64,000 nucleotides of DNA from Candidatus Omnitrophota bacterium (GTDB lineage: Bacteria; Omnitrophota; Gorgyraeia; Zapsychrales; Zapsychraceae). Each line of letters begins with the position of its first letter. Within the stretch, counting starts at the first letter, position 1. The notes beneath the pieces were generated by a model that saw only the letters and a program-made list of their open reading frames with translations, did not search any database and was not told the DNA's origin. The stretch is taken from contig JANQMA010000013.1 of NCBI GenBank assembly GCA_028280285.1, forward strand, positions 5,355 to 69,354. The letters are read 5' to 3'. The position numbers and the translations under genes were made by a program. Positions 22,934-62,488 of this stretch are shown piece after piece.

Positions 22934-25900
22934 TTATAGCATAAGAGCTTGTTCAAGTGACTCTTCATGTCTGACATGCATACGATTCTTTTGGCCGTCA
23001 TTGAGGCCCAAGAGTTGCGGCAGGTTATTGATAGGCGTGATTTGAAGGACTTGTGGAATCAAGCCGGGGATTTCAATACTTTGCAGCTGGGCCGGATCAA
23101 TAGCAAAATCCAAATCAACACCAACCCCTTGGCTCTCTAATTCAAGGAAATCAGGGTTAAAGTCAATACCACCTTGTTTAAGATCTGAAATAGTAGCCTC
23201 ATCATTATGGGCCTTCGTCGGTGAACGGACAGCTATTTCAGGATATGGACTATCTTGTAGGTCCTTTTCAGTAACTTGTGGTAATCTTATTTCTATTTCG
23301 GTTCCAGTATTTTTATCTGATTGAATACTTAATTTTCCGCCATTTTTACTCACATCAAGATCAAGCGCTGCTAATCCCATGCCCGTTGCCTGCCCAAAAG
23401 AAACACGATACCAATTGCCATCCTCATCTTGAAAATCAGTTTCTTTATTATAAGAATAATGCAACACATTCTCAATGTCATCTGTGTCCATTCCGATTCC
23501 ATTATCTTTAATCTTAACAACTACTTCACTTGTTTTTTCATCAAAGGAGGCAGATAAACGCACCTTTCCTCTAACATGACTCCCTCCGTGTTTTTTGACA
23601 CGATCAGGATAAACGGCATTGAAACTGACATATTCTCCAGTTTCTTCAAAACCATCATTAATTTTTTTTAGCTTTTGTGCAGCAACAGCAAATTTACCAT
23701 TTCTTGTCGCCTGGATCAACGACGCTCTAAATCGTTTAGGGTGTGTTAAAATTGTTAACTTTTCCTCATCTTGAATATTAACTTCAATTTCCTCTACAGC
23801 ATCTGAACCGAGAAGTGACTCCATAGAATCAAAATCTCTGTTTGTGTGTACTATCTTATTTTTTGTGGATCTTAAAATATCTGCCAAGTTCACATGAGAA
23901 AGAATGAGACCATGACGTGTCCTTTCATCAATTGTCAGGGCTCTCATACGATCATATCGCTCCCCGATAAATCCACTCAGCCAATCAATTTTAGCCAAAA
24001 TATCTGAAACCTTTTTAAGGGTTCTCGGGTCGTCACTTAAATCAAACGAATCGCGCACACTATCCGTACTAGCCGCCTCAAAAGATTTTTTAAATGAAGG
24101 AAACCCTTCACTATTCGTAACATCTTCAGGTAACCCTTCTATCATTTTAGGCGTGATAACAGCTTTGATAAACCGCCTTAGTGCTTTCGCAGCAACCTCC
24201 TCATCACCTTTTCCAAAATGTTTTTTTCCATTTCGCAGATGCCTGTTAAATCGCCCACGATTAATATTATTGATAACCCAGTCTAAATTAGCCATTTTAC
24301 TTAGAGCAAAATCCGTTCCGACAATATCATCAAACTCCCCCCACAAAATACGCATTTGTCTGAAAATTTCCAGCATATCCTGCTGTAAGTAGATCGCGAG
24401 TGTCGCTTTTTCTAAAATACCCCCTTTGTGTGTAATTTCATAATCGTGCAAATAATCTGCATATGTTGCCGGATAGTATCTGCGCTTGATTAATTCCTCA
24501 TAAGCTGGCAAAGGCTGTTTGGACATATATTGAATCATAGCCCCGCCTGCAGTCTGCACCATTTGAAAAAATCGATCTAAACCATTCTTGCGCGCACTAC
24601 CGACTGTGCCGCCGCCAATAATAGCGATTTTTTTGCCTTTTTGACTATCCATAAACAAAAGAACCTTATCAATAAGAAGCGTATCGAACCTTCCCGTTGC
24701 AATTTCTTCATTAATCCGGTCTCTTGGGAAAGGTGGCACGACCTCTCCATTTTTCGCTATGAACTCTTCAAATAACACACGATTAAAAAAATCGATTCCC
24801 GCTTGAGGCACATTTACATACATAGCCGGCAAAAAGCTGTCTCCCTTCAGACCTATATACTCCTTTTTTTGATCTCGCTTATTAACCCCCGAAGGCCCAT
24901 TAAGAAGTCCGAAATTCAGATCCTTAATATTTTCTATATGCTCCCAAATAGCCTCAGGAGAAACCATATGGAATTTCCAATTATTTTCGACTTGTTCGCT
25001 AGGTCTGGCAATTCTAAAACTTGTTTCTACTAAATCATTCGGCGCAATCTTCTTGTCTTTAAATACCAGTGATTTCGGAAAATTTAACTTACTCCTGACA
25101 TCAGGATTTTTAATAAAAGCATCAATCGCGTGTTGTAAAAATTTGTCGCGATCACCTTCGTTTTTTACCCTAAAATCGATATTGCGCACAAATGGCGCTG
25201 AGCCTTCAACAGCATCCAATGCTTTATATAAAATAATCGCCGGCTGCCCGCCTAGAGGAAGATATTTCATGGTTGGTAAAGAACGCAAGTTTTGATACAT
25301 TAGAAACAATTTTTCTTTAATGCTCTTGTCACTTTTGCCATTTAACCAAGCGAACTCCAAAACATTCATATGCTCCTCAGCTTCCTTCATTTCCTTGGCC
25401 ATGACATAACCCATAACAGCGGGGGTGTCCTCATCTAAGCCCATTGAAGCATCGCGCCGATGGGCCGTTCCCATAGCATCTATAACATGTAAAACAGAAT
25501 GTTGAAGCAGTTTACGACGAAACTCCATATGCTTATCATAGGCATCCTCTAATTTATCAAGCCCCTTATAATAAACGGTAAAAAAATGAACAAGGGCACG
25601 ATATTGCTGAGTAAGATCGTTTGAGTCAAAATATTCAATATATTTCTCAAATGTTGAAGGCGCCAAATGCCTGACATGTCGAGGGATGTTTTCATTCCAC
25701 CTGTAGATATCGTTAAAAGCTCCTAAAACAAAACTTTGCGTCGATCTGATTTGATGCTCAAAATTAGAATTACTTTGCAGAATATTTTCATATATGTTAG
25801 TGAAAATTTTTATTCTATCCAGATTAAGCATATCTGATGGTAATGCTGCCCGGGCTTCTAATATATTTTTTTCAAACTCCTCTAGAGATTTTTCTAAGAT

Positions 25901-28900: not shown

Positions 28901-29392
28901 TTGCCGGACTTTGTTCCAAAATTTTTGCCCTAATTCGCTTTCGGGGTAAGTTAAAGACGCACTTAATTGCTTTAAGAGATAATCTTGAAGCAACATATTA
29001 CGTCCAAACTCGGTTACTTCAAGCGTCTCGGTTATAATCCTGTCGTCCTCATATGGCGACAGGTTAACCCAGAGCTCTTCTTCGGGGACAGTTAAAGCGG
29101 CTAGAAAATATTTAATTAACTGTTCGGATTCTTTTGAAACATCAAGCTGCTTAAGATTTTCATCCCCAAGATTAAGAATAAAATCAAAAGCAAAGGGTTC
29201 GTTTGGATTTATAATAATTCCATTTAAGACAGGCGGATTATACGGTTGGCTGACTGAAACAAAAACCCCGGGGGCAGGAACAAATACCTCTTGAGCCGCA
29301 GCATAAGAAGCGAATATGGTTTCAAATAAAAATACCCCGGCTATAAATAAAGATAAAACTTGTTTAGAAATCCGTAAGCCCGGCATACCCAT
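22934..29392 (-). CDS. Giant secreted multidomain protein (about 2150 aa): shared N-terminal module, insertion-split phosphoglycerate-kinase-like fold, C-terminal GHKL ATPase domain, shared C-terminal tail
   Basis: Start reassigned to the internal [34 protein letters not shown] (signal peptide). The ORF-track start at 29443 would overlap the upstream giant gene by 80 nt. PGK-like motifs: [80 protein letters not shown]. GHKL motifs: KDNGIGMD and GQATGMGLA. Confidence 0.7.
   Translation of the reverse strand: [2152 protein letters not shown]
23279..23626 (-). other. GHKL/HATPase_c-like ATP-binding domain at the C-terminus of the giant ORF
   Basis: D-x-G-x-G ([10 protein letters not shown]) and G-x-G-x-G-L ([11 protein letters not shown]) boxes, ending in a [10 protein letters not shown] strand. 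Confidence 0.6.
24494..26566 (-). other. Phosphoglycerate-kinase-like fold embedded in the giant ORF (residues about 960-1650), interrupted by coiled-coil insertions of about 90-150 aa
   Basis: The order and spacing of the PGK signature blocks are preserved: R-x-D-x-N / ALPTI / SHxGRP; then SxAP...L.GKEV...RF..EE; then DAxGTAHR; then the IIGGG and TGGG loops. Confidence 0.6.
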
Positions 29393-40049: not shown

Positions 40050-40227
40050 GCTTAAACCCAGCCCCCAGAAAGTCCTTTACTACTATTTATAATATATATA
40101 AGTAAGATGATAATTGTGTGAAAGTAGTGTGACTTTCGTGTGAAAAAACACACTTTTACCCGAGACTTACCAGGACAAGCCAGGACACATATGGACAAAT
40201 AATACGACTCTGAAAGGTTTTAGGTTA

Positions 40228-40272
40228 TGGGTTTTAGGTTTCAGCCTCCTAACACCCAACACCTAAAACCTT
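40228..40272. repeat. 10-bp perfect inverted repeat GGTTTTAGGT...ACCTAAAACC immediately 3' of surface protein A
   Basis: Stem GGTTTTAGGT (40228-37) / ACCTAAAACC (40263-72); TAGG/CCTA-rich. Confidence 0.4.
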
Positions 40273-48871: not shown

Positions 48872-51800
48872 TTATTCAATACTTTCTTCAGTAGTGACAT
48901 TATGGTTGTGATCAACAATGTGGGTCTCACCATTAAAGTACACCCTCCAGCTTGGATAGTATACTTCCCCTGTATTGATCAACTCAGCTTCAACCCCACC
49001 TAACTCACTTACTCCAATCTTATCACTCACTAATTGAAGCGCTGTTTCAAGATCCATCGGTTCATAATCAACCGCCTCTAAACTCCATGTCACTTCCTTT
49101 AATACACCACTCTGGGCATCAACCGCCGCAACAGCAATCACGCCCTTCTGACCCGTTGCCTCATCTTTCACAGTAAACGGCACTATATAGTAGTCGCCAT
49201 TCGCATCTGTAACAACCACCGGCAACTTCGCTCCGACACTCTTAAATACTTCCGCTAACCCTTCATCATATGCTACCACTTCATCCAACACTCCCGCAAG
49301 AGCTGCTGAAACCAACCTGTTAGCTTCCGTTATACTGTAATTGAGCCGATACACACTCTGTGTACTGCCATTAACTTCCACCTCCGTAAATACTTGCTCT
49401 ATATTAATCGGTGTATCAAGTTGTGTCTCTAACTCAGCAACAGATCCTCTGCGACTTCCTTCAATAGCTGCATCTACAATCGATACGTATCGACCATAAT
49501 GAGGATCTTCTATGGCTGTTTCTGTTAGTGCTGTAATATAGTTATCAGCAAATTCCTTTGCTGTCACGTACACTTTTTCTCCTGGCCCCTTAACCTGTGG
49601 ATTATTGATCCAGAAGCCGTTGATTTTATACTTTTCTGCTTCACTTGGATTATCTGTTGCGCGGACACCCGTTACCACCACCCACTGATCATAGCCTCCT
49701 TTAACAGGAACCGCCGCCGGTACATACACAGGATGCCCTTCTACTTGACCGACTTCTGTGGCTAGAAGATTAGCGATATCGCTTAATACTTCTTCTTTGG
49801 AGGCGCGATCAGTAATGACCCAATTGTAATTGTATAAATCACTCTCAGGGCCGTAGATTTGAAGCACTTCTTTTAGCCCCTTAGCGTCTAGGCGATTAAG
49901 TTCACTGTTGGCGGTATAGTTTTCCCATTGTCCTTCATCGAACAGAGTGATTTGATTGTTGTATGTTTCTTCTGCGTCTATGACCGGACCTTCTGGATTA
50001 ACGTCTGCATTCCACCACAGATAATCTAATATCATCTGCGCTGCTGCTGTCGCACTATACTGCTTAATCAATTCATTTTCAGTTATTGTTTCTTCTTGCG
50101 CTGAAAAGCTTGCCTGCACATCTTCAACCGGGTCTAACTCCAAGCCCTTTGAACTGATTGCCGGGACATTAGTCAGGTTGTTGAAAAACACTCCTGTCGT
50201 TGATGTTTTATATTCAACGGTACCCGTTGTCTCCCATGCTCCATCGATCAACGTCCAGAGTTGAGCATATAATGGATCTCCTGTTATTGGAAGACTCAAT
50301 TCAGGGGTTGATTGTGTTTCAACGCCCTCCTCTACTTCTATACCAAAGGTTTGGAGATAGATTCCGTTTTTTGCTGTCCCGATCGCAAACCAATATTTTT
50401 TTGCATCAGGTGACGCATTGAATGTAAAGGTTTGTTTCTCTTCAGTCAATGTTGTTCCGGGCGTTGGTGATTGTATTTCCGATATAACCGGTGGAAGATT
50501 TTCTGTTTGATATTCAACAGAGCCGGTTGTCTTCCACACACCATCGATGAGTGTCCATACTTGGGCATAAACGGGATTACCGGTTAATGGAACTCTAAGT
50601 GCAGGTGTTTCTGTCTCAAGCCCCATGCTAAACGAATGCAGATCAGTTCCACCCGCAACTGTCCCTAAAGCAAACCAGTATTGCCGTGCATCAGGGGATT
50701 CGGTGATTGTGAACACTTGTTTCTTCTCAGACAATGTCGTTTCTGCGGTCGGCGACTTAATCTCAGCCACAATGTCCGGAACATTTTCTGTTTGATATTC
50801 AACGCTGCCGGTTGTCTTCCACACACCATCAATGAGTGTCCACACTTGCGCATAAACAGGATTACCGGTTAATGGAATTTTAACCTCAGGTGTTTGTGTT
50901 TCAAGTTTCATACTAAACGACTGCAGATCAGTACCGCCCGCAACCGTTCCGAGCGCAAACCAGTATTCTGATGCATCAGGCGATTCAGTAATCGTGAATG
51001 CTTGTTTTTTGTTCGATAGCGTTGTTCCAGATGTCGGTGTTTGTATTTCTGAGATCACATCCGGAATATTCTGTGTCGTGTATTCAACAGCACCTGTTGT
51101 TTCCCACACATTATCAATGAGCGTCCACACTTGCGCATAAACAGAATTACCTGTCAACGGCACACTAAGCTCAGGTGTTGCTATAGTTTCCACATCGTTT
51201 TGGACAGGAATACCGAAAGAGTGTAAATCCGTTCCGCCTTCAGTTGTCCCGAGCGCAAACCAATATTGCTCTGCATCAGGCGATGCCGTTATTGTAAAGA
51301 TCTGTTTCTTTTTCGATAGCGCTATCGCCGTTGTTGGCGATTCAATTACAGAAATTATAGACCCCTCCGTAACAGTGATGGTGATCGTTTCCGAATCAGT
51401 CAACTCTCCGTCACTTACATTGAAGGTAACCATGAAGGTACCGGCTTGATCGACGGCCGGCATCCAGTTAAATGTACTTGGAGCAACTTCGTTAAAAGTC
51501 GCGCCTTCCGGTAGATTTTGGGCAGTAATATTTAACGGGTCTAGATCTGGGTCGGTTGCATCTACTATAAAAGTTAATAAGCGCCCCGTTTGTACTGATT
51601 TATTGCCAACCGGCGTGAGAACCGGCGGCCGGTTACCTATCACCGTTATTGTGATTGTTTCAGAATCTGTGCCACCATTACCATCGTCAACACTAAATAT
51701 TACATCATGTGTACCGATATCATTAATGGTTGGCGTCCAGCTAAATGTGCGCGTGGTTGAATCAAAATTCGACCCTGCAGGCGCATCTTCAGCAGAAAAA

Positions 51801-52660
51801 GTCAAATTATCTTCATCTTCATCGGTTGCATTAATAATGAAATTCAAATTATTTCCCACTTGTACTGATTTATTGCCAATGGCTTCCAACACCGGATCAG
51901 TGTTTGGTTTTTCAGTGACTGTGATTGTAATTGTTTCAGAATCAGTGCCGCCATTCCCATCATCAACACTAAACGTTACATCATACGTTCCGACATCATC
52001 AATGGTCGGCGTCCAGCCGAATACTTGCGTATCCACATCAAACTCCGCACCGGTTGGCAGATTTTCTGCCTTAAACGTTAAGTCATCTTCATCCGGATCA
52101 GTCGCACTAATAGTAAAGTTCAAACTGCGTCCAGCCTCCACACTTTGATTGTCAATTGGGTCCAAAACAGGATCTTGATTAACCCCGGTAACCGTAACTT
52201 TTCCGTTAGTAAGATTTGTTGCGCTTGTTGTTTGCGTGTCACTAAAATCATATAAACCAAAATTAAGCGGAGTATCGCCTCCCGGGGCGTTCGCTTTAAT
52301 CGTAAATTTAACCTTTGCCGACTCTCCGCTACCACTTATTGATATTGGAGTAAATCCAAACTGTGTGATAATTAATCTATTATCATCATTCGTATCTATT
52401 AAAGCAGTGACGCCTAGTTGAGCCGTGTCCGCTCCTGCCGAAACACTATCATAGGTAAGCACACTGGAATCAAAATTAATAACTGTATCAATCCCTGCCA
52501 GGGCATCGGTAATATCCCCTGCACCGGTATATGTCACCGAAACTTCAACCGTTTCTCCTGGATTTCCAGATACGCCGGATATTGCCCCATCGAAAGCCAA
52601 AGCTTCCGCCGTAATAATCAAACTGGCAATCATTATTAAAACAAAGAATATTTTTTTCAT
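48872..52660 (-). CDS. Giant surface protein C (about 1262 aa): signal peptide, cohesin-like domain, 3 He_PIG repeats, 5 divergent ~95-aa beta-repeats, conserved C-terminal domain
   Basis: Start reassigned to MKKIFFVLIMIASLIITAEALA (signal peptide). Cohesin-like FDGAISGVSGNPGETVEVSVTYTGAGD.... The C-terminal domain and the tail YYPSWRVYFNGETHIVDHNHNVTTEE are almost identical to those of protein B. Confidence 0.75.
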   Translation of the reverse strand: MKKIFFVLIMIASLIITAEALAFDGAISGVSGNPGETVEVSVTYTGAGDITDALAGIDTVINFDSSVLTYDSVSAGADTAQLGVTALIDTNDDNRLIITQFGFTPISISGSGESAKVKFTIKANAPGGDTPLNFGLYDFSDTQTTSATNLTNGKVTVTGVNQDPVLDPIDNQSVEAGRSLNFTISATDPDEDDLTFKAENLPTGAEFDVDTQVFGWTPTIDDVGTYDVTFSVDDGNGGTDSETITITVTEKPNTDPVLEAIGNKSVQVGNNLNFIINATDEDEDNLTFSAEDAPAGSNFDSTTRTFSWTPTINDIGTHDVIFSVDDGNGGTDSETITITVIGNRPPVLTPVGNKSVQTGRLLTFIVDATDPDLDPLNITAQNLPEGATFNEVAPSTFNWMPAVDQAGTFMVTFNVSDGELTDSETITITVTEGSIISVIESPTTAIALSKKKQIFTITASPDAEQYWFALGTTEGGTDLHSFGIPVQNDVETIATPELSVPLTGNSVYAQVWTLIDNVWETTGAVEYTTQNIPDVISEIQTPTSGTTLSNKKQAFTITESPDASEYWFALGTVAGGTDLQSFSMKLETQTPEVKIPLTGNPVYAQVWTLIDGVWKTTGSVEYQTENVPDIVAEIKSPTAETTLSEKKQVFTITESPDARQYWFALGTVAGGTDLHSFSMGLETETPALRVPLTGNPVYAQVWTLIDGVWKTTGSVEYQTENLPPVISEIQSPTPGTTLTEEKQTFTFNASPDAKKYWFAIGTAKNGIYLQTFGIEVEEGVETQSTPELSLPITGDPLYAQLWTLIDGAWETTGTVEYKTSTTGVFFNNLTNVPAISSKGLELDPVEDVQASFSAQEETITENELIKQYSATAAAQMILDYLWWNADVNPEGPVIDAEETYNNQITLFDEGQWENYTANSELNRLDAKGLKEVLQIYGPESDLYNYNWVITDRASKEEVLSDIANLLATEVGQVEGHPVYVPAAVPVKGGYDQWVVVTGVRATDNPSEAEKYKINGFWINNPQVKGPGEKVYVTAKEFADNYITALTETAIEDPHYGRYVSIVDAAIEGSRRGSVAELETQLDTPINIEQVFTEVEVNGSTQSVYRLNYSITEANRLVSAALAGVLDEVVAYDEGLAEVFKSVGAKLPVVVTDANGDYYIVPFTVKDEATGQKGVIAVAAVDAQSGVLKEVTWSLEAVDYEPMDLETALQLVSDKIGVSELGGVEAELINTGEVYYPSWRVYFNGETHIVDHNHNVTTEESIE

Positions 52661-52706
52661 TATATTTTCCTCGATTGATAACAGCTTTGATCGAATCATA
52701 TATTAT

Positions 52707-52920
52707 TTATTCTTCCACTGGAAATTTATCGATAAATGTCACTGTAAATTGTGCAATTAACGCCGCATCCAGAGCATTGATTCTTCCGTCACCGCTTACA
52801 TCCGCACGCACTTGCGCATCCGGATCAAGCGTAATGAATGTAACGGTATGCTGCGCCGTTAATGCCGCATCAAGCGCATTAATTGTTCCATTATTATTGA
52901 CATCGCCATAAGCGATATCG
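52707..52920 (-). other. Dockerin module (two 22-residue F-hand segments)
   Basis: GDVNNNGTINALDAALTAQHTVTFITLDPDAQVRADVSGDGRINALDAALIAQFTVTFI. Confidence 0.8.
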
Positions 52921-55334
52921 CCGCCACTATTACTGAAACCTGGTGTGGTATCGGGCAAATCAAACTTTTTACGTGTTTGTGAACCATCCGAAACACTGCC
53001 AAAAGACTGATTTGGCAACAAAAATTCTTTTGGCATAGTTGATATCGGGGCGTTATTCCTGTTTAGAAGCTCTATAACCTCACCTTCATTGTTAATTTGA
53101 AAATTTGTATGATAAGGCTGTGAATCGCTGTTAAGATTGGAAGCAAATACAAGAACAAACTCACCTGCACCCAAGGTGTGGGGAATTGGAAATGTCCATA
53201 CGTCTTTTTCATCACGCAGTTTAAGCCCCTTTAATTCAACGCTGAGAGGACCTTTATTATAAATTTCGATCCAGTCCTGAGGGATATTATTCTCATCCGT
53301 GTGACCACCTGTCGTGGTAGCAGATGAAAGCTCATTTATCACAAGCTGATTAGCTTCAGGGAGAGGATCTTCGCTGCTGTCTTCATTGGGATCCCTTGGT
53401 GTCGCATTAGTAAATACTTGAAACGAGACAGCCCCATCCGATGTGCGACCATAAGACTCATCCGGATTAAGGGCAGGTATTGGTATAGGCCCTCCAATAG
53501 GAGTTTTATCAGCATTTAAAAGCTTTAGTTGTTCACCTCCGAGTGCAAGTCCGAAATTAGTATGAAATTCTTGATTACCTTCTCCATTACCTTCGATCCG
53601 ATTTTTATCGGATGCCCAGATCAGTAAACGCTCAAGTCCGCCTAAAAGCTTTTGCGGAAATCTCCAATAAGTTCCTTGTTCATCCTGAAATAAAAGCCCT
53701 TCTAACTCAACTTGTCCACCTGAGGTATTATAAATTTCAATCCAGTCATTTTTCTGCCCATCACTGTCCAGAAAGGTACTATTGTTGTTTGAGACCTCAT
53801 TGATCACAATATTAGTTAATTCTGCCCGTGAAGGATAATCGTTGAAGTTGCGATTAGCGTCATCAGGTGTCGGCGAATTCCATAATCTAAAGGCTCCATC
53901 ATGATTAGAAGAAAGCCCCCAAGAAGTGTCCTCAGCCATTGGACTAACTGGAACAGCTTCAATAATCGTGTTGCCAGCATCTGAATTCATAAAAATAACC
54001 GTTCCGCCCTCATTCTTTTTAATAGAGAAATTGGTATGCGCTTCTTTCTTTCCTTGGGCATTGGTAAAAACCCCATTATCCCCGGAAAGGAAAACAACCA
54101 AATATTTTTGACTTTTAATTTCAATGCCGGAATTAGCCGGGAAAGCCCATATTTTTGAGCCATCGCTAATCTTTAGACCGTCCATAGAAATATCTTTGTC
54201 AGGACTCGTATTGTAAAATTCCACCCAATCATTGTAGTCATTTTCATAGTCACGCAGGCCGCTTTCATTGGCGATATTAATTTCGTTGATAATGATAAGG
54301 TCGGCGTTCGGATTCGCTCCGCCACCACCTGGCGTGCTTGGGTTTTTCTCACCCGGTGTCGGGGTTTGAATATTGGCCAATTGACCGACATCATCAAGCC
54401 GGCCCCAGGAAGTATTCGGGGGGATTCGTTCAACAACAAAGTCATCCACTGTAGGCGTTCCATCCGTATTTAACAGTTTTAGCGTCTCTCCTTCTGCCGT
54501 TATTTCAAAATTAGTATGAAGTCCGCCATTCATTTGTGTGGGGTGTTTATCTGAGGCAAATACAACCAAATGCTGCTTGGGACCAATATCCACATCCGGA
54601 AAGACCCACTGCTTACTGTTATCTGCTACGCGTAATCCTTTAAGGTTAACCGTAATGCTGCCATGTTCATTGTAAAGCTCAAACCAGTCATAAAACTTAC
54701 CGTCCTCAGCCTCATGACCATTTGTATTAGATGAAACTACCTCGTTGATTCTAACAAATTGCGCGTTTTGAACCAGAGGTGTTTGTGTGCTGATGTTAGA
54801 AGCTTTTATACTGGGCGTAGGCATTCGGACAAGTTGCGAACCACCATCCTGCGAACGACCGTATGATTCATCGGTTGCTGCTTGGAGTGTCGTCATACGG
54901 TCAACTTCATCCCCATCTGAATTTTTAAGTATAACCGTATCTCCGTTTGCACTTATTTTAAAAGGTAGGGAGTCACCTGTTAAACAATTGTCTCGATCAT
55001 TGGCCCAAAAAACCTTCCAGTTACCATCTTCACCCATTGTTTGACCTGCTCCAATAATTTGACCAGACGGAATCGTGTAGGTTCCCCCACCAGCATCCTC
55101 CAACACCCAATTTTGTAAATTAACGGCAACACCCCCGGTATTATAAAGTTCAATCCAGTCGGAATGATCCCCGCATGGATCTAAATAATCAGAAGATATT
55201 GTTCCACTATTAGAGGCCATGATCTCATTAATCACAATGTCTGCGTTTGCATTTGTTGATAAGGTAAGGAGAAAAGCTAAAATAAATACGGTCTGTTTAA
55301 TCATCGATTTTACATGGTTTACTTTGTCGTTCAT
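52707..55334 (-). CDS. Secreted protein with five lamin-tail domains (LTD) and a C-terminal type-I dockerin
   Basis: Signal peptide, then five repeats of INE(I/V)...DWIE(L/I)YN...L.GW.L.D......FP...(L/I)..G..LV(V/F). C-terminal duplicated Ca-binding segments DVNNNGTINALDAALTAQ and DVSGDGRINALDAALIAQ (D-x-N/D-x-N/D-G-x-x-N-x-x-D, then AAL.AQ). Confidence 0.8.
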   Translation of the reverse strand: MNDKVNHVKSMIKQTVFILAFLLTLSTNANADIVINEIMASNSGTISSDYLDPCGDHSDWIELYNTGGVAVNLQNWVLEDAGGGTYTIPSGQIIGAGQTMGEDGNWKVFWANDRDNCLTGDSLPFKISANGDTVILKNSDGDEVDRMTTLQAATDESYGRSQDGGSQLVRMPTPSIKASNISTQTPLVQNAQFVRINEVVSSNTNGHEAEDGKFYDWFELYNEHGSITVNLKGLRVADNSKQWVFPDVDIGPKQHLVVFASDKHPTQMNGGLHTNFEITAEGETLKLLNTDGTPTVDDFVVERIPPNTSWGRLDDVGQLANIQTPTPGEKNPSTPGGGGANPNADLIIINEINIANESGLRDYENDYNDWVEFYNTSPDKDISMDGLKISDGSKIWAFPANSGIEIKSQKYLVVFLSGDNGVFTNAQGKKEAHTNFSIKKNEGGTVIFMNSDAGNTIIEAVPVSPMAEDTSWGLSSNHDGAFRLWNSPTPDDANRNFNDYPSRAELTNIVINEVSNNNSTFLDSDGQKNDWIEIYNTSGGQVELEGLLFQDEQGTYWRFPQKLLGGLERLLIWASDKNRIEGNGEGNQEFHTNFGLALGGEQLKLLNADKTPIGGPIPIPALNPDESYGRTSDGAVSFQVFTNATPRDPNEDSSEDPLPEANQLVINELSSATTTGGHTDENNIPQDWIEIYNKGPLSVELKGLKLRDEKDVWTFPIPHTLGAGEFVLVFASNLNSDSQPYHTNFQINNEGEVIELLNRNNAPISTMPKEFLLPNQSFGSVSDGSQTRKKFDLPDTTPGFSNSGGDIAYGDVNNNGTINALDAALTAQHTVTFITLDPDAQVRADVSGDGRINALDAALIAQFTVTFIDKFPVEE

Positions 55335-55491
55335 GACAATAATTCCCTTTTCTTTTTTGAAATGATTAAATCGAAATTTAATTCTTCAGGCAGTATTTTC
55401 CCCCAATACCGCGCAGTCTTCGGATTCTACACTTCAACTATAATTTTCCTATATGAAAACCGTATGGCAATTATGTGAAAATACTGTGAAA

Positions 55492-56766
55492 CTAAAACTT
55501 GACCTGAATGTCTCCCTGATAAATTCGCTCAGGAAACTCTAAGGAGGAGTCGGAATTGATTTTTTTCGCATGGTAGTATGAAAGATTCGCCGTGACATTC
55601 GGCGCTAAACCAATGGTTAACTTACCATCATAGCCTTTAATTCCCGTCTGACCTTCATAGCGGTTAGAATTAGGGAATATGTCCGGAAACGCATCTTGTT
55701 CAAGGTGTGAGTATTGGCCTGTAAACTGCCAGTCGCCAAGGTATTTAACTTTTTGATTACCAAATTTAAGCCCTACTGACCAGGCTTTGTTGATTTTATC
55801 CGGCGCATCGTCATTTCTAAACCAGTCGCCGAATATCGCGATACGTTTAAATTCCTCATGTATCATTTTGCGATAACCTAGTTCAACAGAACCGCCCGAC
55901 ACCCTGAAGTTGTGTGATAAACTACCGGTACAATTCGTCCCGAATAGAGTTAAACCTGAGTTGCTGCATGCTGTGTCGTCGAGCCGCTTTCCTTTTAAAT
56001 GACGAAATTCATAGAAAGTTCCCGCCACCTTTGCATCAAAATCATTTATTTCAACCCCAACGCCCCCTTGTCCATAGATAAGCATCGGATCTTCTGTCGA
56101 AGCAGACAGTTCATCAATAGCCAGGCCGCCGGCATTACCAAATACCGTCACCTTTCTACCTATATTTTTTTCAAGGTGAAGAGCACCACCTTCCGGATTA
56201 ATATCACTGTCCCACAATAATGTTGTCGGTTTCCATATATAATCGTCTGCCTTCCATTTACCACCGACCACTTTCACCCATGGAAACGGTTTGTATTCCA
56301 AAAATCCATAATCAAGGCGTATGTCGGCTTTATCAAAGCTATCAGTAAAAGTCACATTGCCTGAACGTGAATCACCACTGCCGGTTGTAATCCCAATGCC
56401 GCCGGTGATATGTTTATTAATGCGCGAAATCAGACCTATACGCGCACGCAGACGTCCACGCTGACGGCTATCATCAATTCCTTTGCGTTTTTCATATTGA
56501 GTACGAAGACGAATGTCTCCTTTAAGCTCAATGCGCTGTACCCATTGGGGAAGACTAATGAGCCTTCCTTCAACCATATGCTCGGCCACATAACGCTTGG
56601 TTTTGTCTTTTAAAATCGTTGCCTCAATTTCGGACAAATATCCTTTGTCGACTAATTTTTCAATCAAAAGGTCATTATCGGAAATTTGCGCGTAACTTGT
56701 GGAAGGAAATACGGCGGCACCTGCAAGCAGTACGATAAAGATATATTGTAAAATTTTTATTTTCAT
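55492..56766 (-). CDS. Outer-membrane beta-barrel protein (porin-like), C-terminal Phe
   Basis: Signal peptide MKIKILQYIFIVLLAGAAVFPSTSYA, N-terminal helical/coiled segment, alternating amphipathic beta-strand pattern, and C-terminal ...QGDIQVKF (terminal aromatic residue typical of BAM substrates). Confidence 0.6.
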   Translation of the reverse strand: MKIKILQYIFIVLLAGAAVFPSTSYAQISDNDLLIEKLVDKGYLSEIEATILKDKTKRYVAEHMVEGRLISLPQWVQRIELKGDIRLRTQYEKRKGIDDSRQRGRLRARIGLISRINKHITGGIGITTGSGDSRSGNVTFTDSFDKADIRLDYGFLEYKPFPWVKVVGGKWKADDYIWKPTTLLWDSDINPEGGALHLEKNIGRKVTVFGNAGGLAIDELSASTEDPMLIYGQGGVGVEINDFDAKVAGTFYEFRHLKGKRLDDTACSNSGLTLFGTNCTGSLSHNFRVSGGSVELGYRKMIHEEFKRIAIFGDWFRNDDAPDKINKAWSVGLKFGNQKVKYLGDWQFTGQYSHLEQDAFPDIFPNSNRYEGQTGIKGYDGKLTIGLAPNVTANLSYYHAKKINSDSSLEFPERIYQGDIQVKF

Positions 56767-56835: not shown

Positions 56836-59800
56836 TTATTTAAGTATAATGGTTAAATCTGTGGCAGTTAAAACAGTGCTTGCGCTGTCAACAAAGACCC
56901 TCCTCTTTTGCCCCGAGTTAATGGTTGTTCCTTGAAAAATTTCTATGTCTTCAAATATAAAGTAATTTGAATCTTGATCTAAAACGGCATAATCGCTCAA
57001 CACAATCATTGCATTCGTATTATTTTCAATTTCTAAATATTGTGATCCAATCTCTGTTACAACAATATCTTCTTGCGCATTAACCACGCCTCCTAACACA
57101 ATATCGCTGTTATTATCAGTAGATGCACTATCATCCGATGATTGTGATTGATCAGTTTGATCTTCCTGGGTGTTCTCTGCAGCCGTTTCTTCTGTCTGCT
57201 CTGTTGGTTCAGGCATCTGTTCTTCGATAGGTGTTCCCATTTCACTTGACTCTTCCGGCTCTGAAGCAGACGTATTATCTGCGCTTATATCTGTTTGCTC
57301 TGCTTCGGCCTGTACCACTACTTGTGTCTGATATGTCCTCACATCACCGCCTATCCACTCACCATTAACTTTCGTCCACAAACGGGCAAAAACATTGGCA
57401 CCATCCTGCGGCAAACCAGCGGCCAATATATTTAAATCGGTTGTCCCTCCTGAAAAAATAAAATCAGCCGATACACGCGTTGTAAAGATAGAAAATTTGC
57501 GTCCAATATTGAGTTGATATTCCTCGGCATTATTCTCTGCACTCCATGTAAACACTTGCTCTGAACCGCTCAAAGTCGAATTGTCGGCTGGTGTTTGAAT
57601 CTCAGCCGGTTTGGCCGGCTCCACATATTTATTAAAATCCCCCGGTGTCGCCTGATCAAATGATCTAAATATGGTTGATCCATCTGGGAAACGGCCACCG
57701 CTATTGTCACTCGCAATAGTTTGCACTTCAGATAATGTAATCTGATCAATAATATCTATACCATTGCGTTCAACGAGGATGACAGGCTCATCGGATGATA
57801 TTTTAAAACTTGTATGCAAATTCCCTGAAGGATCCCTTTTATCTTTACCCGAGGCATAAAGGATTAAAAACTCTCCCGGACCTATGGAAACACTTGGAAA
57901 CTTCCATTTGGTTAGATTATCTTCACTATCCGTAATGTAGCTGTCCGTCAAATCAATTGTTTGTGTGGTCGTGTTATAAAGTTCAATCCAATCTTGTTCT
58001 TCTAAATCCTCATCAAGCATTTTTTTATCGCCACTATTGACGATTTCATTGATCACTATTTCCGCAGCAGGTGCCGCAGCATCTTCTTCAAAATTAGCAG
58101 TCACGGTAATATTTTTATTTGGAAAGATTGTGTGAACCGGGTTATCAACAATGGTTGAATCGACTGTGAAATTAACAAAACGAAAACCGCGGTTATTCTG
58201 AGCTGCAATCTTAAGTGGTACATCGTTAAAATATTGCCCCGTCCCGTCCAATTGAGCTTTAAATATTTCCGCATCTAGTTGTATCGTTCCACCTTCTTCA
58301 GGAAATGAACGAAAAGTAATCGTACTTGAACCGCTTAAATTAAAAAAGCTTTCAACATAACCACGCATTTCAGCCGGACGGTCTTGAAGAAAACTAACCA
58401 AATGATTAACATTGCTGCGCCAATCACCTTCTGTAAGCAATCCAGCAGCCCATAGATTAAGATGATAAGAAACCCACGGCGCGATTTTTTGCTCGGTTTG
58501 ACGCACAAAGGCAATAGCATTATCGGAACTAAACGTCCCGTTTAAAAGCGCATCAAATTTGCGAATAAAGGCATTTTTAAATTCTATATTCTGAAGAAGC
58601 GGCGCAAGCAATTTGGAATTGTGATTGAGAATACTTAACGAATCGATATGCATAATCGAATCGGCTAATCCAAAAGCTGAATCAAAATCATAATTATAGG
58701 TATGAAATGGTCCCGGTGTCTCCCCTTTTGGGGCATCGCGCCAAAACGCCAAATTGTTTGTTGCAAAATCAATATTTCCGGCAATAATTTGGGCCACCAT
58801 ACCGGAAAGAAAACTCTTTAAATGAAGACGCTGTTTAACATAATTGTAATTTGATTGATTGTTCAGGTTGTTTGCTTGCATAAAATCAATTAAGGCAAAA
58901 AAGTCATCCAAACCTTTTCGTCCGCCAGCTTCAATAGCGCTTTCACTCACTTCTTCATATTCCGCCTGACCAAGATCATAAAAATTTCCGAAAACGGCTG
59001 TGTTATCACTCCGTACAAACACATCCTCAAAATCATTATCCCGCAAAACAATCATGTCCACATCATCATCATCAACTTCCGGATGATTCGCTTCAATCGT
59101 TGAGTTATCACGCTTTTCACTTATATTAACCATACCAAAATTAAATCCATTGATTACAACAAGGATTGCCCCGCCATCAAACCGCATTTCAAAATCTTCA
59201 TCCGTACGGCATAATTCCGCCATAAGCGTATTACGAATACCCAAAGTCGGTTTAAAAAGCGGCTCAGGCTTGGTGGTTTTGACACTATCTTGATTATTGT
59301 TACGCACCTGATAGTGACGATACTTTGTAATCGGCTTATTTAAGACCTCTCCGACAAAATGCGAATGCATCGGATCAACATCTTCATTCGCGGAGATCTT
59401 AAACGGACGCATCCACTCATTACGTGAGCTGGCCCCAATAACTTGAATTTCCGCATCTTGAGAAAAGACTTGCACCCCTTCAGCATTAAAGTATTCGACA
59501 TGCATCGGACGACGCTGTTTTCTTTGTAAATTCGGTGAAGTATCTGGCGTATCCCCACTTCCTGGGAAAATACCGATCCCAGGATCCCATAAATTGTCAT
59601 ATTCCGTTGTAATCGCAAGAACAGGCAGTCCCTTGGCATCAAAATTGATGAAATAAGTCTGCCCGGCCGGTCCACTATTGGCATAGCCGCCTCTAGAGGC
59701 GATCGCGCGGATAGTGGTTGTCTTTGTCACAGTAATCGGTCCGTTATATTTTTGAGAATTTGTGGTAGGAGCTGTTCCGTCAAGCGTGTAAAAAATTTCG

Positions 59801-60393
59801 GCACCTAAAGTGTTTGTTGAAAGACTAACTGTTATGTTGGAATCATAAAATCCACCGCCTTGTGAAAACTGCGGCCGGGAAACCATTGGTGCTCCGTTAG
59901 CCGCTCCTGGTGTAGGCTCACGGAACAAAAGGTGCTCTCCTGTTGTATGCTTACCGAATGATAAGTTACGTGGAATGGCGTCATAATCAATTCTGCTGAC
60001 AATCTGTCCAAACGGGTCCGTTAAAATAACAGCGTCGTCATCATCGGAAAGTCTAAAATTTGTATGGAAATTCGGTGGCGGCGGATCTGTTCTATCTTTG
60101 TTAGATGCAAAAACAACCAGGTATTCACCTGGTTGAATGATATAACTTGGGAAAACCCAGTGGCCAATTGACCCGTCATCATCAGCCAGCCCCCAACCTG
60201 CTAGATCAACAGGGGTTGAGCCATTGTTATAAAGCTCGATCCAATCGGAAGAATCTCCATCTGCATCAAAAAAAATTGTGTTTGATGTAGTGATTTCATT
60301 GACAACAACGTTGGCATGGGCATTCGCTGTAAACACAGCAAAAAATATTGCCAAAAAAGTTGTTAGGAAAGTTGTGCGAGTCCTGCTGTCCAT
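56836..60393 (-). CDS. Secreted LTD / CotH-kinase-like / LTD protein (1185 aa) with beta-repeat and acidic low-complexity linker
   Basis: Signal peptide. LTD1 VVVNEITTSN...DWIELYNNGSTPVDLAGWGL. Fn3/CHB_HEX_C-like FYTLDGTAPT. CotH-like core with HTYNYDFDSAFGL (compare CotH WDxDxxFG). LTD2 IVINEIVNSG...DWIELYNTT. One beta-repeat resembling those of proteins B and C (...ANVFARLWTKVNGEW...). A D/E/S/T-rich linker. Confidence 0.7.
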   Translation of the reverse strand: MDSRTRTTFLTTFLAIFFAVFTANAHANVVVNEITTSNTIFFDADGDSSDWIELYNNGSTPVDLAGWGLADDDGSIGHWVFPSYIIQPGEYLVVFASNKDRTDPPPPNFHTNFRLSDDDDAVILTDPFGQIVSRIDYDAIPRNLSFGKHTTGEHLLFREPTPGAANGAPMVSRPQFSQGGGFYDSNITVSLSTNTLGAEIFYTLDGTAPTTNSQKYNGPITVTKTTTIRAIASRGGYANSGPAGQTYFINFDAKGLPVLAITTEYDNLWDPGIGIFPGSGDTPDTSPNLQRKQRRPMHVEYFNAEGVQVFSQDAEIQVIGASSRNEWMRPFKISANEDVDPMHSHFVGEVLNKPITKYRHYQVRNNNQDSVKTTKPEPLFKPTLGIRNTLMAELCRTDEDFEMRFDGGAILVVINGFNFGMVNISEKRDNSTIEANHPEVDDDDVDMIVLRDNDFEDVFVRSDNTAVFGNFYDLGQAEYEEVSESAIEAGGRKGLDDFFALIDFMQANNLNNQSNYNYVKQRLHLKSFLSGMVAQIIAGNIDFATNNLAFWRDAPKGETPGPFHTYNYDFDSAFGLADSIMHIDSLSILNHNSKLLAPLLQNIEFKNAFIRKFDALLNGTFSSDNAIAFVRQTEQKIAPWVSYHLNLWAAGLLTEGDWRSNVNHLVSFLQDRPAEMRGYVESFFNLSGSSTITFRSFPEEGGTIQLDAEIFKAQLDGTGQYFNDVPLKIAAQNNRGFRFVNFTVDSTIVDNPVHTIFPNKNITVTANFEEDAAAPAAEIVINEIVNSGDKKMLDEDLEEQDWIELYNTTTQTIDLTDSYITDSEDNLTKWKFPSVSIGPGEFLILYASGKDKRDPSGNLHTSFKISSDEPVILVERNGIDIIDQITLSEVQTIASDNSGGRFPDGSTIFRSFDQATPGDFNKYVEPAKPAEIQTPADNSTLSGSEQVFTWSAENNAEEYQLNIGRKFSIFTTRVSADFIFSGGTTDLNILAAGLPQDGANVFARLWTKVNGEWIGGDVRTYQTQVVVQAEAEQTDISADNTSASEPEESSEMGTPIEEQMPEPTEQTEETAAENTQEDQTDQSQSSDDSASTDNNSDIVLGGVVNAQEDIVVTEIGSQYLEIENNTNAMIVLSDYAVLDQDSNYFIFEDIEIFQGTTINSGQKRRVFVDSASTVLTATDLTIILK

Positions 60394-60403
60394 AGAGATA
60401 TCT

Positions 60404-60419
60404 AATAACCGGTTATTAT
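60404..60419. promoter_or_regulatory. Perfect 16-bp palindrome TAATAACCGGTTATTA immediately upstream of the LTD-CotH gene start
   Basis: Self-complementary 16-mer located 11-26 nt upstream of the ATG at 60393, overlapping the expected ribosome-binding region. Confidence 0.4.
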
Positions 60420-60498
60420 TTATCTCTATGATATATATTTAATGTGAACTTTATGTGACAAAGCTGCAAAAGGTGTGTGAATAGTGCAGATTTTTTAT

Positions 60499-61416
60499 TT
60501 ATTCAGATTTATCATTACCTAAATCATTATTTTGCAGTAGTTTATGTAAATCTTCATTTCTCTCAAGCAATTCACGCGTCTGTTTCTGTAAAGCCTCATT
60601 AACCTCGACTAAATCCTTTACCTGATTAATCAAAAAATAATACTCTTCCCGCATTTCACGATTGGAGAAATTTTCTTGACCGGCCGGCTCTTGTGGACTC
60701 GACACATAGTCAGATTCTGGTATTAAGTCATGCTGGGCAATTAAATCCGTCAATTGCTGATCAAAGGTTTCATCCCAGAGCTGAAGTGTTATATGCGCCT
60801 TATTTAATTCCTCATCATAGATCTCAGGATCATCGGCTAATATACGTTTCATTAAAATACTATGATAGGCCAGCAAATGCTCATAATAGCCCAGCATTGT
60901 CGCGACAAGATCTTCGGTCAAAGCTATGGGCTTAATGCCGGCCACTTTGTTTTTGGCCTCTTCAATGTAGTGCATCACCTCAAGCAGCAGGGTTAATGTT
61001 TTTTCATGATCGCGTGTTTTTTGAGCCTCTTCTAAAAGCACGATAAACTGTTCTAAAAAAAGATCCAGCTCCTGATCGATATCAACAATTTCGAGGAGCG
61101 CTTTACCTATTGTTAATTCCGAAGGCCCGACGTTCCTTTGAGGGATAATGGGCACAAGAGCATCTTCTTTTGGCTCCGGATCAAAGGTTTCTTGCCCTTC
61201 TGGTATGCGCTGGGAAATCTCATCCTTACTGATAAAAATAAAAGGAGGTGTTAGATATTCCGAAAAACTTGCCTTAAAATAATTGTCTTTTTCTTTTACG
61301 ACATAAGCATGGATGTCTTCCCCCGACTTCATCCGAAAAGTATCGGCCAAGATATTTGATGTACTCAGGATAAGCATTCCTGTAAAAATTAATGTTATCA
61401 TTGCTTGTGATTTCAT
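60499..61416 (-). CDS. Hypothetical secreted protein with C-terminal coiled coil
   Basis: Signal peptide MKSQAMITLIFTGMLILSTSNILA; no recognisable enzymatic motifs. Confidence 0.5.
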   Translation of the reverse strand: MKSQAMITLIFTGMLILSTSNILADTFRMKSGEDIHAYVVKEKDNYFKASFSEYLTPPFIFISKDEISQRIPEGQETFDPEPKEDALVPIIPQRNVGPSELTIGKALLEIVDIDQELDLFLEQFIVLLEEAQKTRDHEKTLTLLLEVMHYIEEAKNKVAGIKPIALTEDLVATMLGYYEHLLAYHSILMKRILADDPEIYDEELNKAHITLQLWDETFDQQLTDLIAQHDLIPESDYVSSPQEPAGQENFSNREMREEYYFLINQVKDLVEVNEALQKQTRELLERNEDLHKLLQNNDLGNDKSE

Positions 61417-61458
61417 TTTTTTATTTCAATCCAACCATTATTATGTTAAATATGTTTC

Positions 61459-62088
61459 ATGCAAAAGATTTCACTCAATCTACTTCTCTTTACTATCGGC
61501 ATTTGCTTCTTTGCCCATGCCCAAAATCTTTCATCTGAGTATTCTCCTTTAAATCCAGACGGCTCTGTGAACGCCCTCATTGAAATACCGGCGGGCACCA
61601 ATGAAAAATGGGAGCTGTCCAAAGACACACAAACAATCGCGCTAGAACATAAAAACGGCAAACCACGCATTATTCAATACCTTGGCTACCCCGGTAATTA
61701 CGGCATGGTACCTCAAACTTTGCTTGCTGAAGATCAAGGCGGTGATGGTGATCCGCTCGACATTCTTGTGATCGGCGCACCCGCCAAACGCGGAGATATT
61801 ATTCCGGCCAAACTGCTTGGCGTTTTAAAACTTCTCGATGATAATGAACAAGATGACAAATTGATTGCCGCCATGCCTGATTCAGTTTTCGCCAATCTTA
61901 ATTCCCTCGAGGAATTAGATCGTGGTTTCCCCGGCACTCTATCAATTCTTCAAACATGGTTTACTTATTATAAGGGGCCGAACGGCGGCATGGTCTTTAA
62001 AGGTTTCGGCACGCGCGAGGAAGCCTTAGCGATTCTTAACAAAGCTTCTGTTCCACAAACTCTTTCTGCTACTCAACAAACCAATTGA
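61459..62088 (+). CDS. ppa: Family I inorganic pyrophosphatase with N-terminal signal peptide
   Basis: PPase signature DGDPLDILV within EDQGGDGDPLDILVIG, plus N-terminal MQKISLNLLLFTIGICFFAHAQ. It is the only plus-strand gene; its 3' end overlaps gspG convergently by 20 nt. Confidence 0.8.
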   Translation: MQKISLNLLLFTIGICFFAHAQNLSSEYSPLNPDGSVNALIEIPAGTNEKWELSKDTQTIALEHKNGKPRIIQYLGYPGNYGMVPQTLLAEDQGGDGDPLDILVIGAPAKRGDIIPAKLLGVLKLLDDNEQDDKLIAAMPDSVFANLNSLEELDRGFPGTLSILQTWFTYYKGPNGGMVFKGFGTREEALAILNKASVPQTLSATQQTN

Positions 62089-62488
62089 CAATATCATCCT
62101 TACTTTGAACGCCATCAGATCCTAAAGAAGACAAGTCATACGACTCGGTATTTTGGACGCCCGGGGCAACATAGACATATTCTCTTTGCCAGGGATCACG
62201 AGGAAGAGCCTTCTTTTTAAGATAGGGCCCATCCCATCCTCCCGCACCGGAAGGCTTAACCAGCAAGGCCTTTAACCCTTCATTAGTTGTGGGATACTGA
62301 CCAACATCCAGTTCGTACATATCAAGCGCAACGGAAAGATTGGCTTCGATGTCTGCCCTGGCCGCAGATATACGGGCCTTCTCGCCCTTGCCGGCCAAAT
62401 TCGGCACAACCATGGCTGCCAAAACACCAATGATAATGACAACCAATAATATTTCAACAAGGGTGAATCCCTTTGTGTTATTTTTCAT
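62069..62488 (-). CDS. gspG: Type II secretion / type IV pilin-like major pseudopilin
   Basis: Prepilin N-terminus KGFTLVEILLVVIIIGVLAAMVVPNL (cleavage/methylation site G|FTLVE); GspG-like body RADIEANLSVALDMYELDVGQYPTTNEGLKALL...GWDGPYL. Confidence 0.85.
   Translation of the reverse strand: MKNNTKGFTLVEILLVVIIIGVLAAMVVPNLAGKGEKARISAARADIEANLSVALDMYELDVGQYPTTNEGLKALLVKPSGAGGWDGPYLKKKALPRDPWQREYVYVAPGVQNTESYDLSSLGSDGVQSKDDIVNWFVE

Follow-up and report, generated by a model that had tools for sequence, protein, structure and literature searches.

This study concerns a 64-kb stretch of DNA from a Candidatus Omnitrophota bacterium, hereafter the window, and within it a 38-kb block of genes coding for giant and surface proteins. 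Exact sequence matches were obtained in two places only, a Logan assembly of SRR20820735 and one NCBI contig. In transcription order, the block encodes a lamin-tail-domain (LTD) protein with a CotH kinase-like domain (LTD-CotH), an outer-membrane porin, a protein made of five LTDs and a dockerin (LTD5-dockerin), three cohesin-Ig paralogues (C, B, and A), and two giant proteins (2 and 1). We consider it reasonably probable that this block is a segment of a phosphate-starvation (Pho-type) regulon encoding a surface-displayed phosphorus-acquisition system. Its Pho-type regulation is well supported by sites predicted from the sequence, and we infer that its biochemistry is the capture or processing of phosphorus.

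On reading the intergenic regions of the block, tandem (G/T)TCACA units with an 11-bp period were found. The pattern TCACAN6TCACA occurs five times exactly in the window, for 0.07 occurrences expected, and none of 100 shuffled sequences contained more than one match. Intergenic sequence makes up 4.7% of the window and contains four of the five matches, each of them on the coding strand and upstream of a gene of the block, and no exact match is found in the housekeeping half of the window. Allowing up to one mismatch adds only two matches, both within coding sequence. The intergenic sites form three arrays (P1, P2, and P3; Table 1) of two to four units with an 11-nt period, located 49–117 nt upstream of ATG codons. 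P3 is followed by an AT-rich -10-like stretch. PHO boxes are defined in the same terms, as tandem 11-nt direct-repeat units, for example CTGTCAT in E. coli and GTTCACC in S. coelicolor (PMC4415409). As in the Pho regulons of E. coli, B. subtilis (PhoP), and Streptomyces (PhoP), tandem repeats of 11-nt period stand in place of the -35 region at several promoters. The fifth exact match (47536-47551, minus strand) falls within the coding region of the middle cohesin-Ig gene and may be either a chance occurrence or an internal site. A further exact match is present in the same organism beyond the right end of the window (L001, 615-630), between genes for an ATP-synthase alpha/beta-type protein and a PEP-CTERM protein, on the strand opposite both.

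The same sites recur in relatives. We compared 11 distinct loci, window included, having LTD-CotH orthologues of 40–55% identity; scans of sequence collections gave two loci on genome contigs and four on metagenome contigs (related loci are given L numbers below). In the window and eight related loci, 24 matches with at most one mismatch are found in 17.9 kb of intergenic sequence, vs. nine in 204.7 kb of coding sequence. All 24 intergenic matches point at one of the following genes: LTD-CotH, the LTD/dockerin gene, a giant of the family described below, the pyrophosphatase, a phoB-like regulator, Porin_5-pstS, pstC, or Porin_O_P. Equivalents of P1 are located upstream of LTD-CotH orthologues in L002/4, L006, and L007, with degenerate forms in L008 and L019, and equivalents of P2 are located upstream of LTD genes in L002/4, L006, and L007. 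The orthologues of giant 1 in L002 and L003 have their own Pho-box-like arrays, and TCACA-N6-TCACA precedes the pyrophosphatase orthologues of L003 and L008. As in known Pho regulons, the sites of relatives also precede core phosphate genes, namely the phoB-like gene (autoregulation), Porin_5-pstS, and pstC in L006, and Porin_O_P-CotH-PstS in L009-13; this observation applies to the relatives, the pst and pho genes of the window genome itself lying outside the window.

The 11 loci are of two types. Six of them (the window, L002/L004, L003/L005, L007, L008, and L019) contain a family giant, a pyrophosphatase gene on the opposite strand (missing in L007), a gene for a hypothetical protein of ~305 residues, LTD-CotH, Porin_5, an LTD protein, and cohesin/Ig proteins. 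The other five (L006, L009-11, L012/13, L020, and L022) associate the cassette with phosphate genes. In L006, the order is phoB-like, phoR/pnpS-like, Porin_5-pstS, phoU, pstCAB, and a second phoU, then LTD-CotH, Porin_5, LTD-dockerin, and cohesins. In L009-11, L012/13, and L020, Porin_O_P, LTD-CotH, and PstS are followed either by PhoB, Ppx, two Tmk genes, and CHAD or by other giants, and in L022 Ppx and CHAD are found near LTD-CotH. The sequence-only reading of the window had proposed that scattered homologues in related genomes would refute a single apparatus. They are not scattered, because orthologous cassettes recur in relatives despite rearrangement. Its proposal of one coherent cell-envelope system is thus supported, as a conserved and apparently co-regulated gene set.

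For both response regulators found in relatives next to the cassette, PhoB is the best match, yet they score 262 and 257 bits against a trusted cut-off of 296, and the CreB, RpaB, and BaeR models score close behind. These values, and the lack of any organic-phosphate hydrolase in the block, would suit a surface coat or an adhesion system under the control of some OmpR-family regulator distinct from PhoB, the proximity of pst and pho genes being then incidental or due to a broader envelope-stress regulon. We judge this alternative distinctly improbable. In L006, the same motif precedes Porin_5-pstS, pstC, and the regulator's own gene, and four further lineages either have the motif before Porin_O_P-LTD-CotH-PstS units or carry PstS in those units. 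Moreover, in the relatives PstS (243–245 bits for an NCBIfam cut-off of 206.6) and PhoU (167 for 130) pass curated cut-offs, and the sensor kinase passes that of the phosphate sensor PnpS (425 for 400).

Within the window, all 11 open reading frames listed by the sequence-only reading are present at the coordinates it gave, and its domain calls are confirmed by Pfam. The signal peptides it assigned are also present: every product begins with basic residues, followed by a hydrophobic segment and an A-x-A-like site, as judged by inspection and Kyte-Doolittle hydropathy, with the reservation that giant 2 is a polytopic membrane protein. Other aspects of the proposed layout have to be revised. The genes of the block are all on the minus strand, but this orientation does not delimit the block because nearly the entire 64-kb window is minus-strand, including the two-component, GGDEF, and metabolic genes of its other half. 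Gaps of at most 220 nt had been announced and the largest measured one is 221 nt. Instead of several 8-nt overlaps, a single one exists (44100-44107), and giants 2 and 1 overlap by 29 nt if giant 1 starts at M18, the start used in the deposited 2152-aa model, and by 80 nt otherwise. The pyrophosphatase gene, which had been grouped with the other genes upstream of the block, is on the opposite strand, between the gene for the pseudopilin GspG and the block. At the other end, spacing leaves the edge of the block undefined, because no more than 116 nt separate giant 1 from the next gene downstream, which is on the same strand and encodes a HAMP-HisKA-HATPase kinase. Finally, a single operon had been envisaged. 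Because of the three site arrays and of a stable RNA hairpin between cohesin A and giant 2 (-31 kcal/mol), which is probably a terminator separating transcription units, at least three co-regulated units are more consistent with the data. Scans of the block for sigma-70 promoter and intrinsic-terminator consensus sequences remained at shuffle background and gave no information on operons.

Table 1. Genes, protein regions, and predicted regulatory elements of the block and its upstream neighbors (window coordinates).
Feature	Position	Strand	Characteristics
Inorganic pyrophosphatase with signal peptide	61459..62088	+	PF00719 E 4.6e-33; N-terminal hydrophobic segment; transcribed divergently from the block
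Secreted ~305-aa hypothetical protein, first cassette gene	60499..61416	-	Signal-peptide-like N-terminus
Site P1, GTCACA-N5-TTCACA	60443..60459	-	Intergenic, 49 nt upstream of LTD-CotH ATG; exact TCACAN6TCACA match
LTD-CotH: LTD - CHB_HEX_C/Fn3_assoc - CotH kinase-like - LTD, secreted	56836..60393	-	Pfam LTD 131 bits, CotH, CHB_HEX_C_1
Outer-membrane porin Porin_5	55492..56766	-	PF16930 132.8 bits; C-terminal ...VKF
Array P2, TTCACA, TTCACA, GCCATA, TTCATA, 11-bp period	55452..55490	-	Upstream of LTD5-dockerin; exact pair 55474-55489
LTD5-dockerin: five LTDs and C-terminal type-I dockerin	52707..55334	-	LTD 227 bits in 5 stretches; Dockerin_1 49.3 bits (cut-off 22.9)
Paralogue C: cohesin - Ig repeats - conserved C-terminal domain	48872..52699	-	Cohesin 36.9 bits (cut-off 24.1), He_PIG/Big_9
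Paralogue B: cohesin-like N-terminus - 8 Ig repeats - conserved C-terminal domain	44100..48845	-	He_PIG 334 bits
Paralogue A: cohesin - 7 Ig repeats - conserved C-terminal domain	40271..44107	-	Cohesin 45 bits (cut-off 24.1), He_PIG 241.8 bits
RNA hairpin	40214..40272	-	Directly after paralogue A stop codon; minimum free energy -31 kcal/mol, z = -4.88, 0/200 shuffles fold as well
Array P3, TTCACA, GTCACA, TTCACA, ATCATC, 11-bp period	40106..40144	-	56 nt upstream of giant 2 ATG; two overlapping exact matches
Giant 2, 3561 aa	29364..40049	-	Signal peptide, N-domain (hidden Markov model E 4.8e-137), 4-5 transmembrane helices, HEAT repeats (HEAT_2), C-motif (E 1.3e-19)
Giant 1, 2152-2169 aa	22934..29392 (or to 29443)	-	Signal peptide, N-domain, PGK-like with long insertions, orphan GHKL ATPase, C-motif
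N-domains	28328-29305 (giant 1), 38955-39953 (giant 2)		Family residues ~40-370
C-motifs, approximate	22990-23190 (giant 1), 29540-29720 (giant 2)

The co-orientation of the whole window and the background level of the consensus scans are what would be expected if unrelated genes for large secreted proteins merely lay side by side on the leading strand. This explanation is scarcely credible, being already contradicted by the synteny and motif data: the gene content is kept across the 11 distinct loci despite rearrangement, the shared motif is confined to these genes, and domains of two of the products are fused in a relative, as described next.

The only dockerin of the window is carried by the LTD5 protein, and the three Ig-repeat paralogues each start with one cohesin. 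In paralogue B, the module is recognized by the 56% identity of its N-terminal 487 residues to paralogue C, which is the basis for counting it as a third cohesin scaffold. Cohesins and dockerin are thus found on separate secreted proteins, as in cohesin-dockerin complexes. In L004, the orthologous five LTDs share a single reading frame with Ig repeats and the conserved C-terminal domain, and both dockerin and cohesin are missing. Because of this fusion (a Rosetta-stone argument), the LTD5 protein and the Ig stalks are likely to form one structure, and the comparison of sequences supports a dockerin-cohesin pairing of LTD5 with the Ig proteins. The C-terminal domain, of ~400 residues, is common to A, B, and C (40274-41665, 44103-45353, and 48875-50122, respectively) and also occurs in proteins of L004, L006, and L007. 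It is marked by the motifs AAAQMILDYLWWN, GHPVYxPAAVP, WVVVxGVRATD, GFWIxxP, and GDYYIV. No match was obtained in Pfam, even at E up to 1, nor among PDB sequences, and an AlphaFold2 model built from the three paralogues alone (mean predicted local distance difference test, pLDDT, 36) was unusable. This domain may be an anchor. The alignment gives the impression, and no more, of a papain/C39-like pattern in which another residue stands at the Cys position.

Cohesin (PF00963) and type-I dockerin (PF00404) modules encoded by adjacent genes, with a pairing supported by the fused orthologue, recall cellulosomes, and proposals of cellulosome-like assemblies exist for other uncultured phyla (PMC8542988). 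We nevertheless regard a cellulosome-like complex degrading extracellular polymers as very improbable. According to Pfam, the block encodes no glycoside hydrolase or other carbohydrate-active enzyme, no peptidase, and no carbohydrate-binding module. There is one cohesin per scaffold, without the tandem array of scaffoldins, and the single dockerin protein brings five LTD binding modules rather than enzymes. In addition, the envelope is of the Gram-negative type, and a C-terminal domain without family match takes the place of SLH or sortase anchors.

LTD-CotH has 16 orthologues (39–55% identity), all the named ones from Omnitrophota, and no match among PDB sequences. Its CotH domain (PF08757) scores 76.7 bits for a cut-off of 23.8 and therefore belongs to the CotH family. 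A porin (Porin_5 or Porin_O_P) adjoins the gene in all 11 distinct loci. In the window, the porin gene is probably co-transcribed with LTD-CotH; its product is homologous (E 2.6e-89) to the Porin_5 that is paired with pstS in L006, where the pair is preceded by a Pho-box-like site. Homologues of the ~305-aa protein, for which no Pfam or NCBIfam family was found, are encoded between the pyrophosphatase gene and LTD-CotH in L002/4, L003/5, L007, L008, and L019, and pyrophosphatase orthologues are at the same position in L002/4, L003/5, L008, and L019.

Published data connect both types of domain with phosphorus. LTDs typically accompany secreted phosphoesterases and nucleases (PMC6085458), and B. 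subtilis CotH polyphosphorylates Ser-rich coat proteins (PMC7821199). A trio of CotH, VTC, and a membrane protein has been described in S. intermedius (bioRxiv 10.1101/2024.04.20.589940). Like the spore-coat kinase of B. subtilis and the CotH-VTC-DUF4956 operons, the present protein has a CotH domain above the Pfam cut-off and a genomic link to (poly)phosphate genes. It differs from them in that there is no spore-coat context and that its gene has as partners a porin and either PstS or a pyrophosphatase, not VTC. The LTD-CHB_HEX_C-CotH architecture itself is widespread among secreted proteins. In an unrelated lineage (L015, 8001-13202, and L016), genes for an LTD-LTD-CHB_HEX_C-CotH protein, a VTC polyphosphate-polymerase protein, and a DUF4956 protein come one after the other, the first two within 16 nt of each other, and form a compact CotH-polyphosphate operon whose CotH protein has an architecture like that of LTD-CotH.

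The two giants are members of a very large Omnitrophota-specific family and resemble each other in a ~330-aa N-terminal region (N-domain, 43% identity) and in a ~60-aa C-terminal motif (C-motif), with nothing in common between these bookends. In both, the C-motif reads GGIDFNP...NLPQLLGLN, for a family consensus GGIDxNP...NLPxLLG near the C-terminus, and both proteins match the two family hidden Markov models. Giant 2 has 4–5 internal hydrophobic helices, and over 447 residues it is 46% identical to the L004 giant encoded just after the cassette. In giant 1, which is without internal transmembrane helices, Pfam detects PGK (94.9 bits) and HATPase_c (39.1 bits). Its PGK-like part, split by long insertions, keeps motifs of the 3-phosphoglycerate site (RxDxN, DxR, SHxGRP, xxxRF, AHR), and its nucleotide-binding half is weakly recognizable. 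Searches with the giants retrieved more than 2,800 proteins in which the N-domain is fused to very different cargoes, the named homologues being from Candidatus Omnitrophota/Omnitrophica. The cargo is highly variable and mostly made of cytoplasmic-type enzymes (PGK, enolase, GAPDH, aldolase, PGM, PGI, PPDK, UbiB kinases, M48 peptidase, methyltransferases, HEAT, HATPase_c). Both bookends are present in 119 of 121 members, with the N-domain always starting at about residue 40, and 101 of the 121 have no strong internal transmembrane helix. Against 1.84 billion representative sequences, the N-domain profile identified 8,294 clusters at 50% identity, 6,693 of them at E <= 1e-30, and the domain was always N-terminal. 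It is covered by no Pfam or NCBIfam model, and its AlphaFold2 model (pLDDT 71) has no significant structural neighbor. The bookends are candidates for a lineage-specific sorting or anchoring signal.

Family giants flank the cassette in six loci. In L002 and L003/5, confirmed orthologues of the PGK+HATPase_c giant are immediately upstream of the cassette and not at its end. A family giant closest to giant 1 has the same upstream position in L019. In L004, a protein resembling giant 2 comes after the cassette. The association of giants and cassette hence survives rearrangement, since the PGK-GHKL giant is upstream in L002 and L003 and at the end in the window. Other giants, without N-domain and C-motif, follow PstS/PhoB genes in L009 (10741-19116, >6386 aa, with faint LTD and VTC matches) and L020 (5121-12041, >2307 aa). 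In another Omnitrophota genome (L023, 1-25967), family giants of >4952 aa, 1294 aa (with HEAT), and 1988 aa (with PGK) are in tandem next to mutL/mutS, with a small MazE-like gene between giants and pilin-like and secretin genes 6–9 kb downstream. Regulation of the whole N-domain family by Pho was considered and rejected, the PGK-bearing member of L023 having no sites.

Two preprints have reported Omnitrophota giants that are much longer, carry the same cargo repertoire, and are predicted to be extracellular (bioRxiv 10.1101/2023.11.21.568195; 10.64898/2026.06.07.730766). The present proteins share with these “Archaeovorins” and long multi-enzyme proteins the phylum, a signal peptide, a predicted extracytoplasmic bulk, and a cargo repertoire of HEAT, HATPase_c, PPDK_N, and glycolytic-enzyme domains. 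Unlike them, they have 2.2 and 3.6 thousand residues vs. more than 30 thousand, Pfam finds no SecA/DEAD domain, and no multi-gene locus resembling a type II secretion system (T2SS) is adjacent. “Archaeovorins” are recognized by tens of thousands of residues, many transmembrane regions, a divergent SecA/DEAD domain, and a T2SS-like locus ahead of the gene, a set of marks that the present proteins do not show. The N-domain/C-motif bookends, linkage to a cassette, LTD or CotH domains, phosphate genes, and Pho-type sites are mentioned in neither preprint.

The organizing idea of the sequence-only reading was a specialized attachment or predation/epibiont organelle, tied to type II secretion or a pseudopilus through the adjacent GspG. 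The long Ig-repeat, cohesin-dockerin, and LTD proteins are adhesin-like, Omnitrophota have been proposed to be predators or epibionts with giant proteins thought to mediate host contact, and giant genes have been reported near loci resembling T2SS or type IV pili (PMC10066038; bioRxiv 10.1101/2023.11.21.568195; bioRxiv 10.64898/2026.06.07.730766). The pilin-like and secretin genes near the L023 giants go in the same direction. GspG itself is bona fide: the 139-aa protein has the N-methylation motif and, with 136.6 bits on the equivalog model TIGR01710 for a cut-off of 88.85, is a major pseudopilin. However, none of the 10 related distinct loci has a GspG homologue. Between gspG and the block lies the pyrophosphatase gene, in opposite orientation and with a convergent overlap of 20 nt with the 3' end of gspG, and gspG has no shared regulatory site. 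As had been noted earlier, it stands without other gsp or pil genes; indeed, neither gspD/E/F nor minor pseudopilin genes are seen among the annotated open reading frames of the window or in 3.4 kb beyond, and genes for GspC-F or GspH-M are not found nearby, so that resemblance to a T2SS stops at the pseudopilin. GspG is genuine but is a neighbor of the system, neither conserved beside the cassette nor co-transcribed with it. Moreover, the shared motif and the neighbors of the cassette in relatives point to phosphate acquisition (pstSCAB, phoU, phoBR, Porin_O_P, ppx, CHAD), not to secretion or pilus genes. We therefore hold the organelle to be an unlikely explanation. The block may serve in attachment, a function that is compatible with its content and for which, as for predation, we find no specific support; the two readings can also coexist, attachment being then induced by phosphate starvation.

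Under the favored Pho-type reading, a PhoB-type winged-helix response regulator is predicted to bind the tandem (G/T)TCACA units 11 bp apart and to switch on at least three units: LTD-CotH with the porin, LTD5-dockerin with the three cohesin-Ig paralogues up to the hairpin, and giant 2 with giant 1. The products would be exported by Sec. LTD5-dockerin would then dock on the N-terminal cohesins of the Ig-repeat proteins, giving fibrils that display LTD modules, an assembly step based on sequence features and on the gene fusion in the relative L004 only. The LTD modules and LTD-CotH would capture or process a phosphorus-rich extracellular substrate, for which polyphosphate, nucleic acid, and phosphorylated surface polymers are candidates. 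Orthophosphate would be set free by the secreted pyrophosphatase and let in by the porin for uptake by a Pst system encoded elsewhere. The giants, recruited to the same regulon, would probably bind or transfer phosphorylated compounds at the envelope. In line with known Pho regulons, a porin of the outer membrane and a secreted phosphoanhydride hydrolase are among the predicted targets. In contrast to them, the members are LTD-CotH, a cohesin-dockerin LTD scaffold, and two multi-kiloresidue fusions, none of which is described as a Pho member in the literature searched; alkaline phosphatase and nuclease are missing here, and the sites are predicted.

Several points weigh against this scheme. 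The window contains no pst or pho gene and no PhoB, the phosphate link coming from relatives and from the predicted binding site, and another OmpR-family regulator could bind the repeats. The site search in the window found none upstream of its own pyrophosphatase, ~305-aa protein, or porin genes. Besides the pyrophosphatase, Pfam recognizes no phosphatase, nuclease, or phosphodiesterase in the block. CotH is a kinase fold and not a hydrolase, kinase activity here being predicted from the domain match, and the extracytoplasmic ATP-dependent domains (PGK, GHKL, CotH) have no evident nucleotide supply. Finally, in an Ignavibacteriales genome LTD-CotH sits among glycoside hydrolases of the type IX secretion system without phosphate genes, and the PGK-bearing family giant of the L023 array has no Pho-like sites.

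In a bolder version, phosphate starvation would induce a system for phosphoryl transfer outside the cytoplasm, made up of the cassette and the giants and acting on environmental polyphosphate or phosphorylated metabolites captured on LTD fibrils. The secreted pyrophosphatase and the CotH kinase fold would take part in it together with the PGK-like, PPDK-like, and GHKL cargoes that are exported. We give this version a low probability. If true, it would mean kinase-type chemistry outside the cell independent of cytoplasmic ATP, and a first physiological role for secreted LTD-CotH proteins and for a subset of the N-domain family of more than 8,000 clusters.

Further genes of the window may be mentioned. 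The kinase downstream of giant 1 (21141-22817) is a transmembrane-HAMP-HisKA-HATPase protein whose best NCBIfam match is the “T2SS_HK” subfamily model (252 bits, below the cut-off of 450). Its assignment as PhoR was rejected, the PhoR score being far lower, and the window search found no site near it. It is followed by genes for an AHSA1 protein, a methyltransferase, a double-REC regulator, and a GGDEF protein. Elsewhere, a SET-domain protein (8354-8851; PF00856, 94.9 bits) adjoins a 1113-aa protein (4983-8324) with no family match except a weak coiled-coil-type one.

In the literature searched, we found no description of a combination of Pho regulon, cohesin-dockerin display, and Omnitrophota long fusion proteins. 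Three gene sets without known function are concerned, namely secreted LTD-CotH proteins, which occur in many phyla, non-cellulosomal cohesin-dockerin pairs, and the enzyme-fusion giants of Omnitrophota. All three are located here behind predicted sites of the kind that precede pstS, pstC, and phoB in relatives. A further outcome of the analysis is the definition of a very large protein family, of 8,294 clusters at 50% identity, with conserved bookends and no public model. If the favored reading holds, the default view of at least some Omnitrophota giants would shift from that of a “predation tool” to one of nutrient, and more precisely phosphorus, acquisition.

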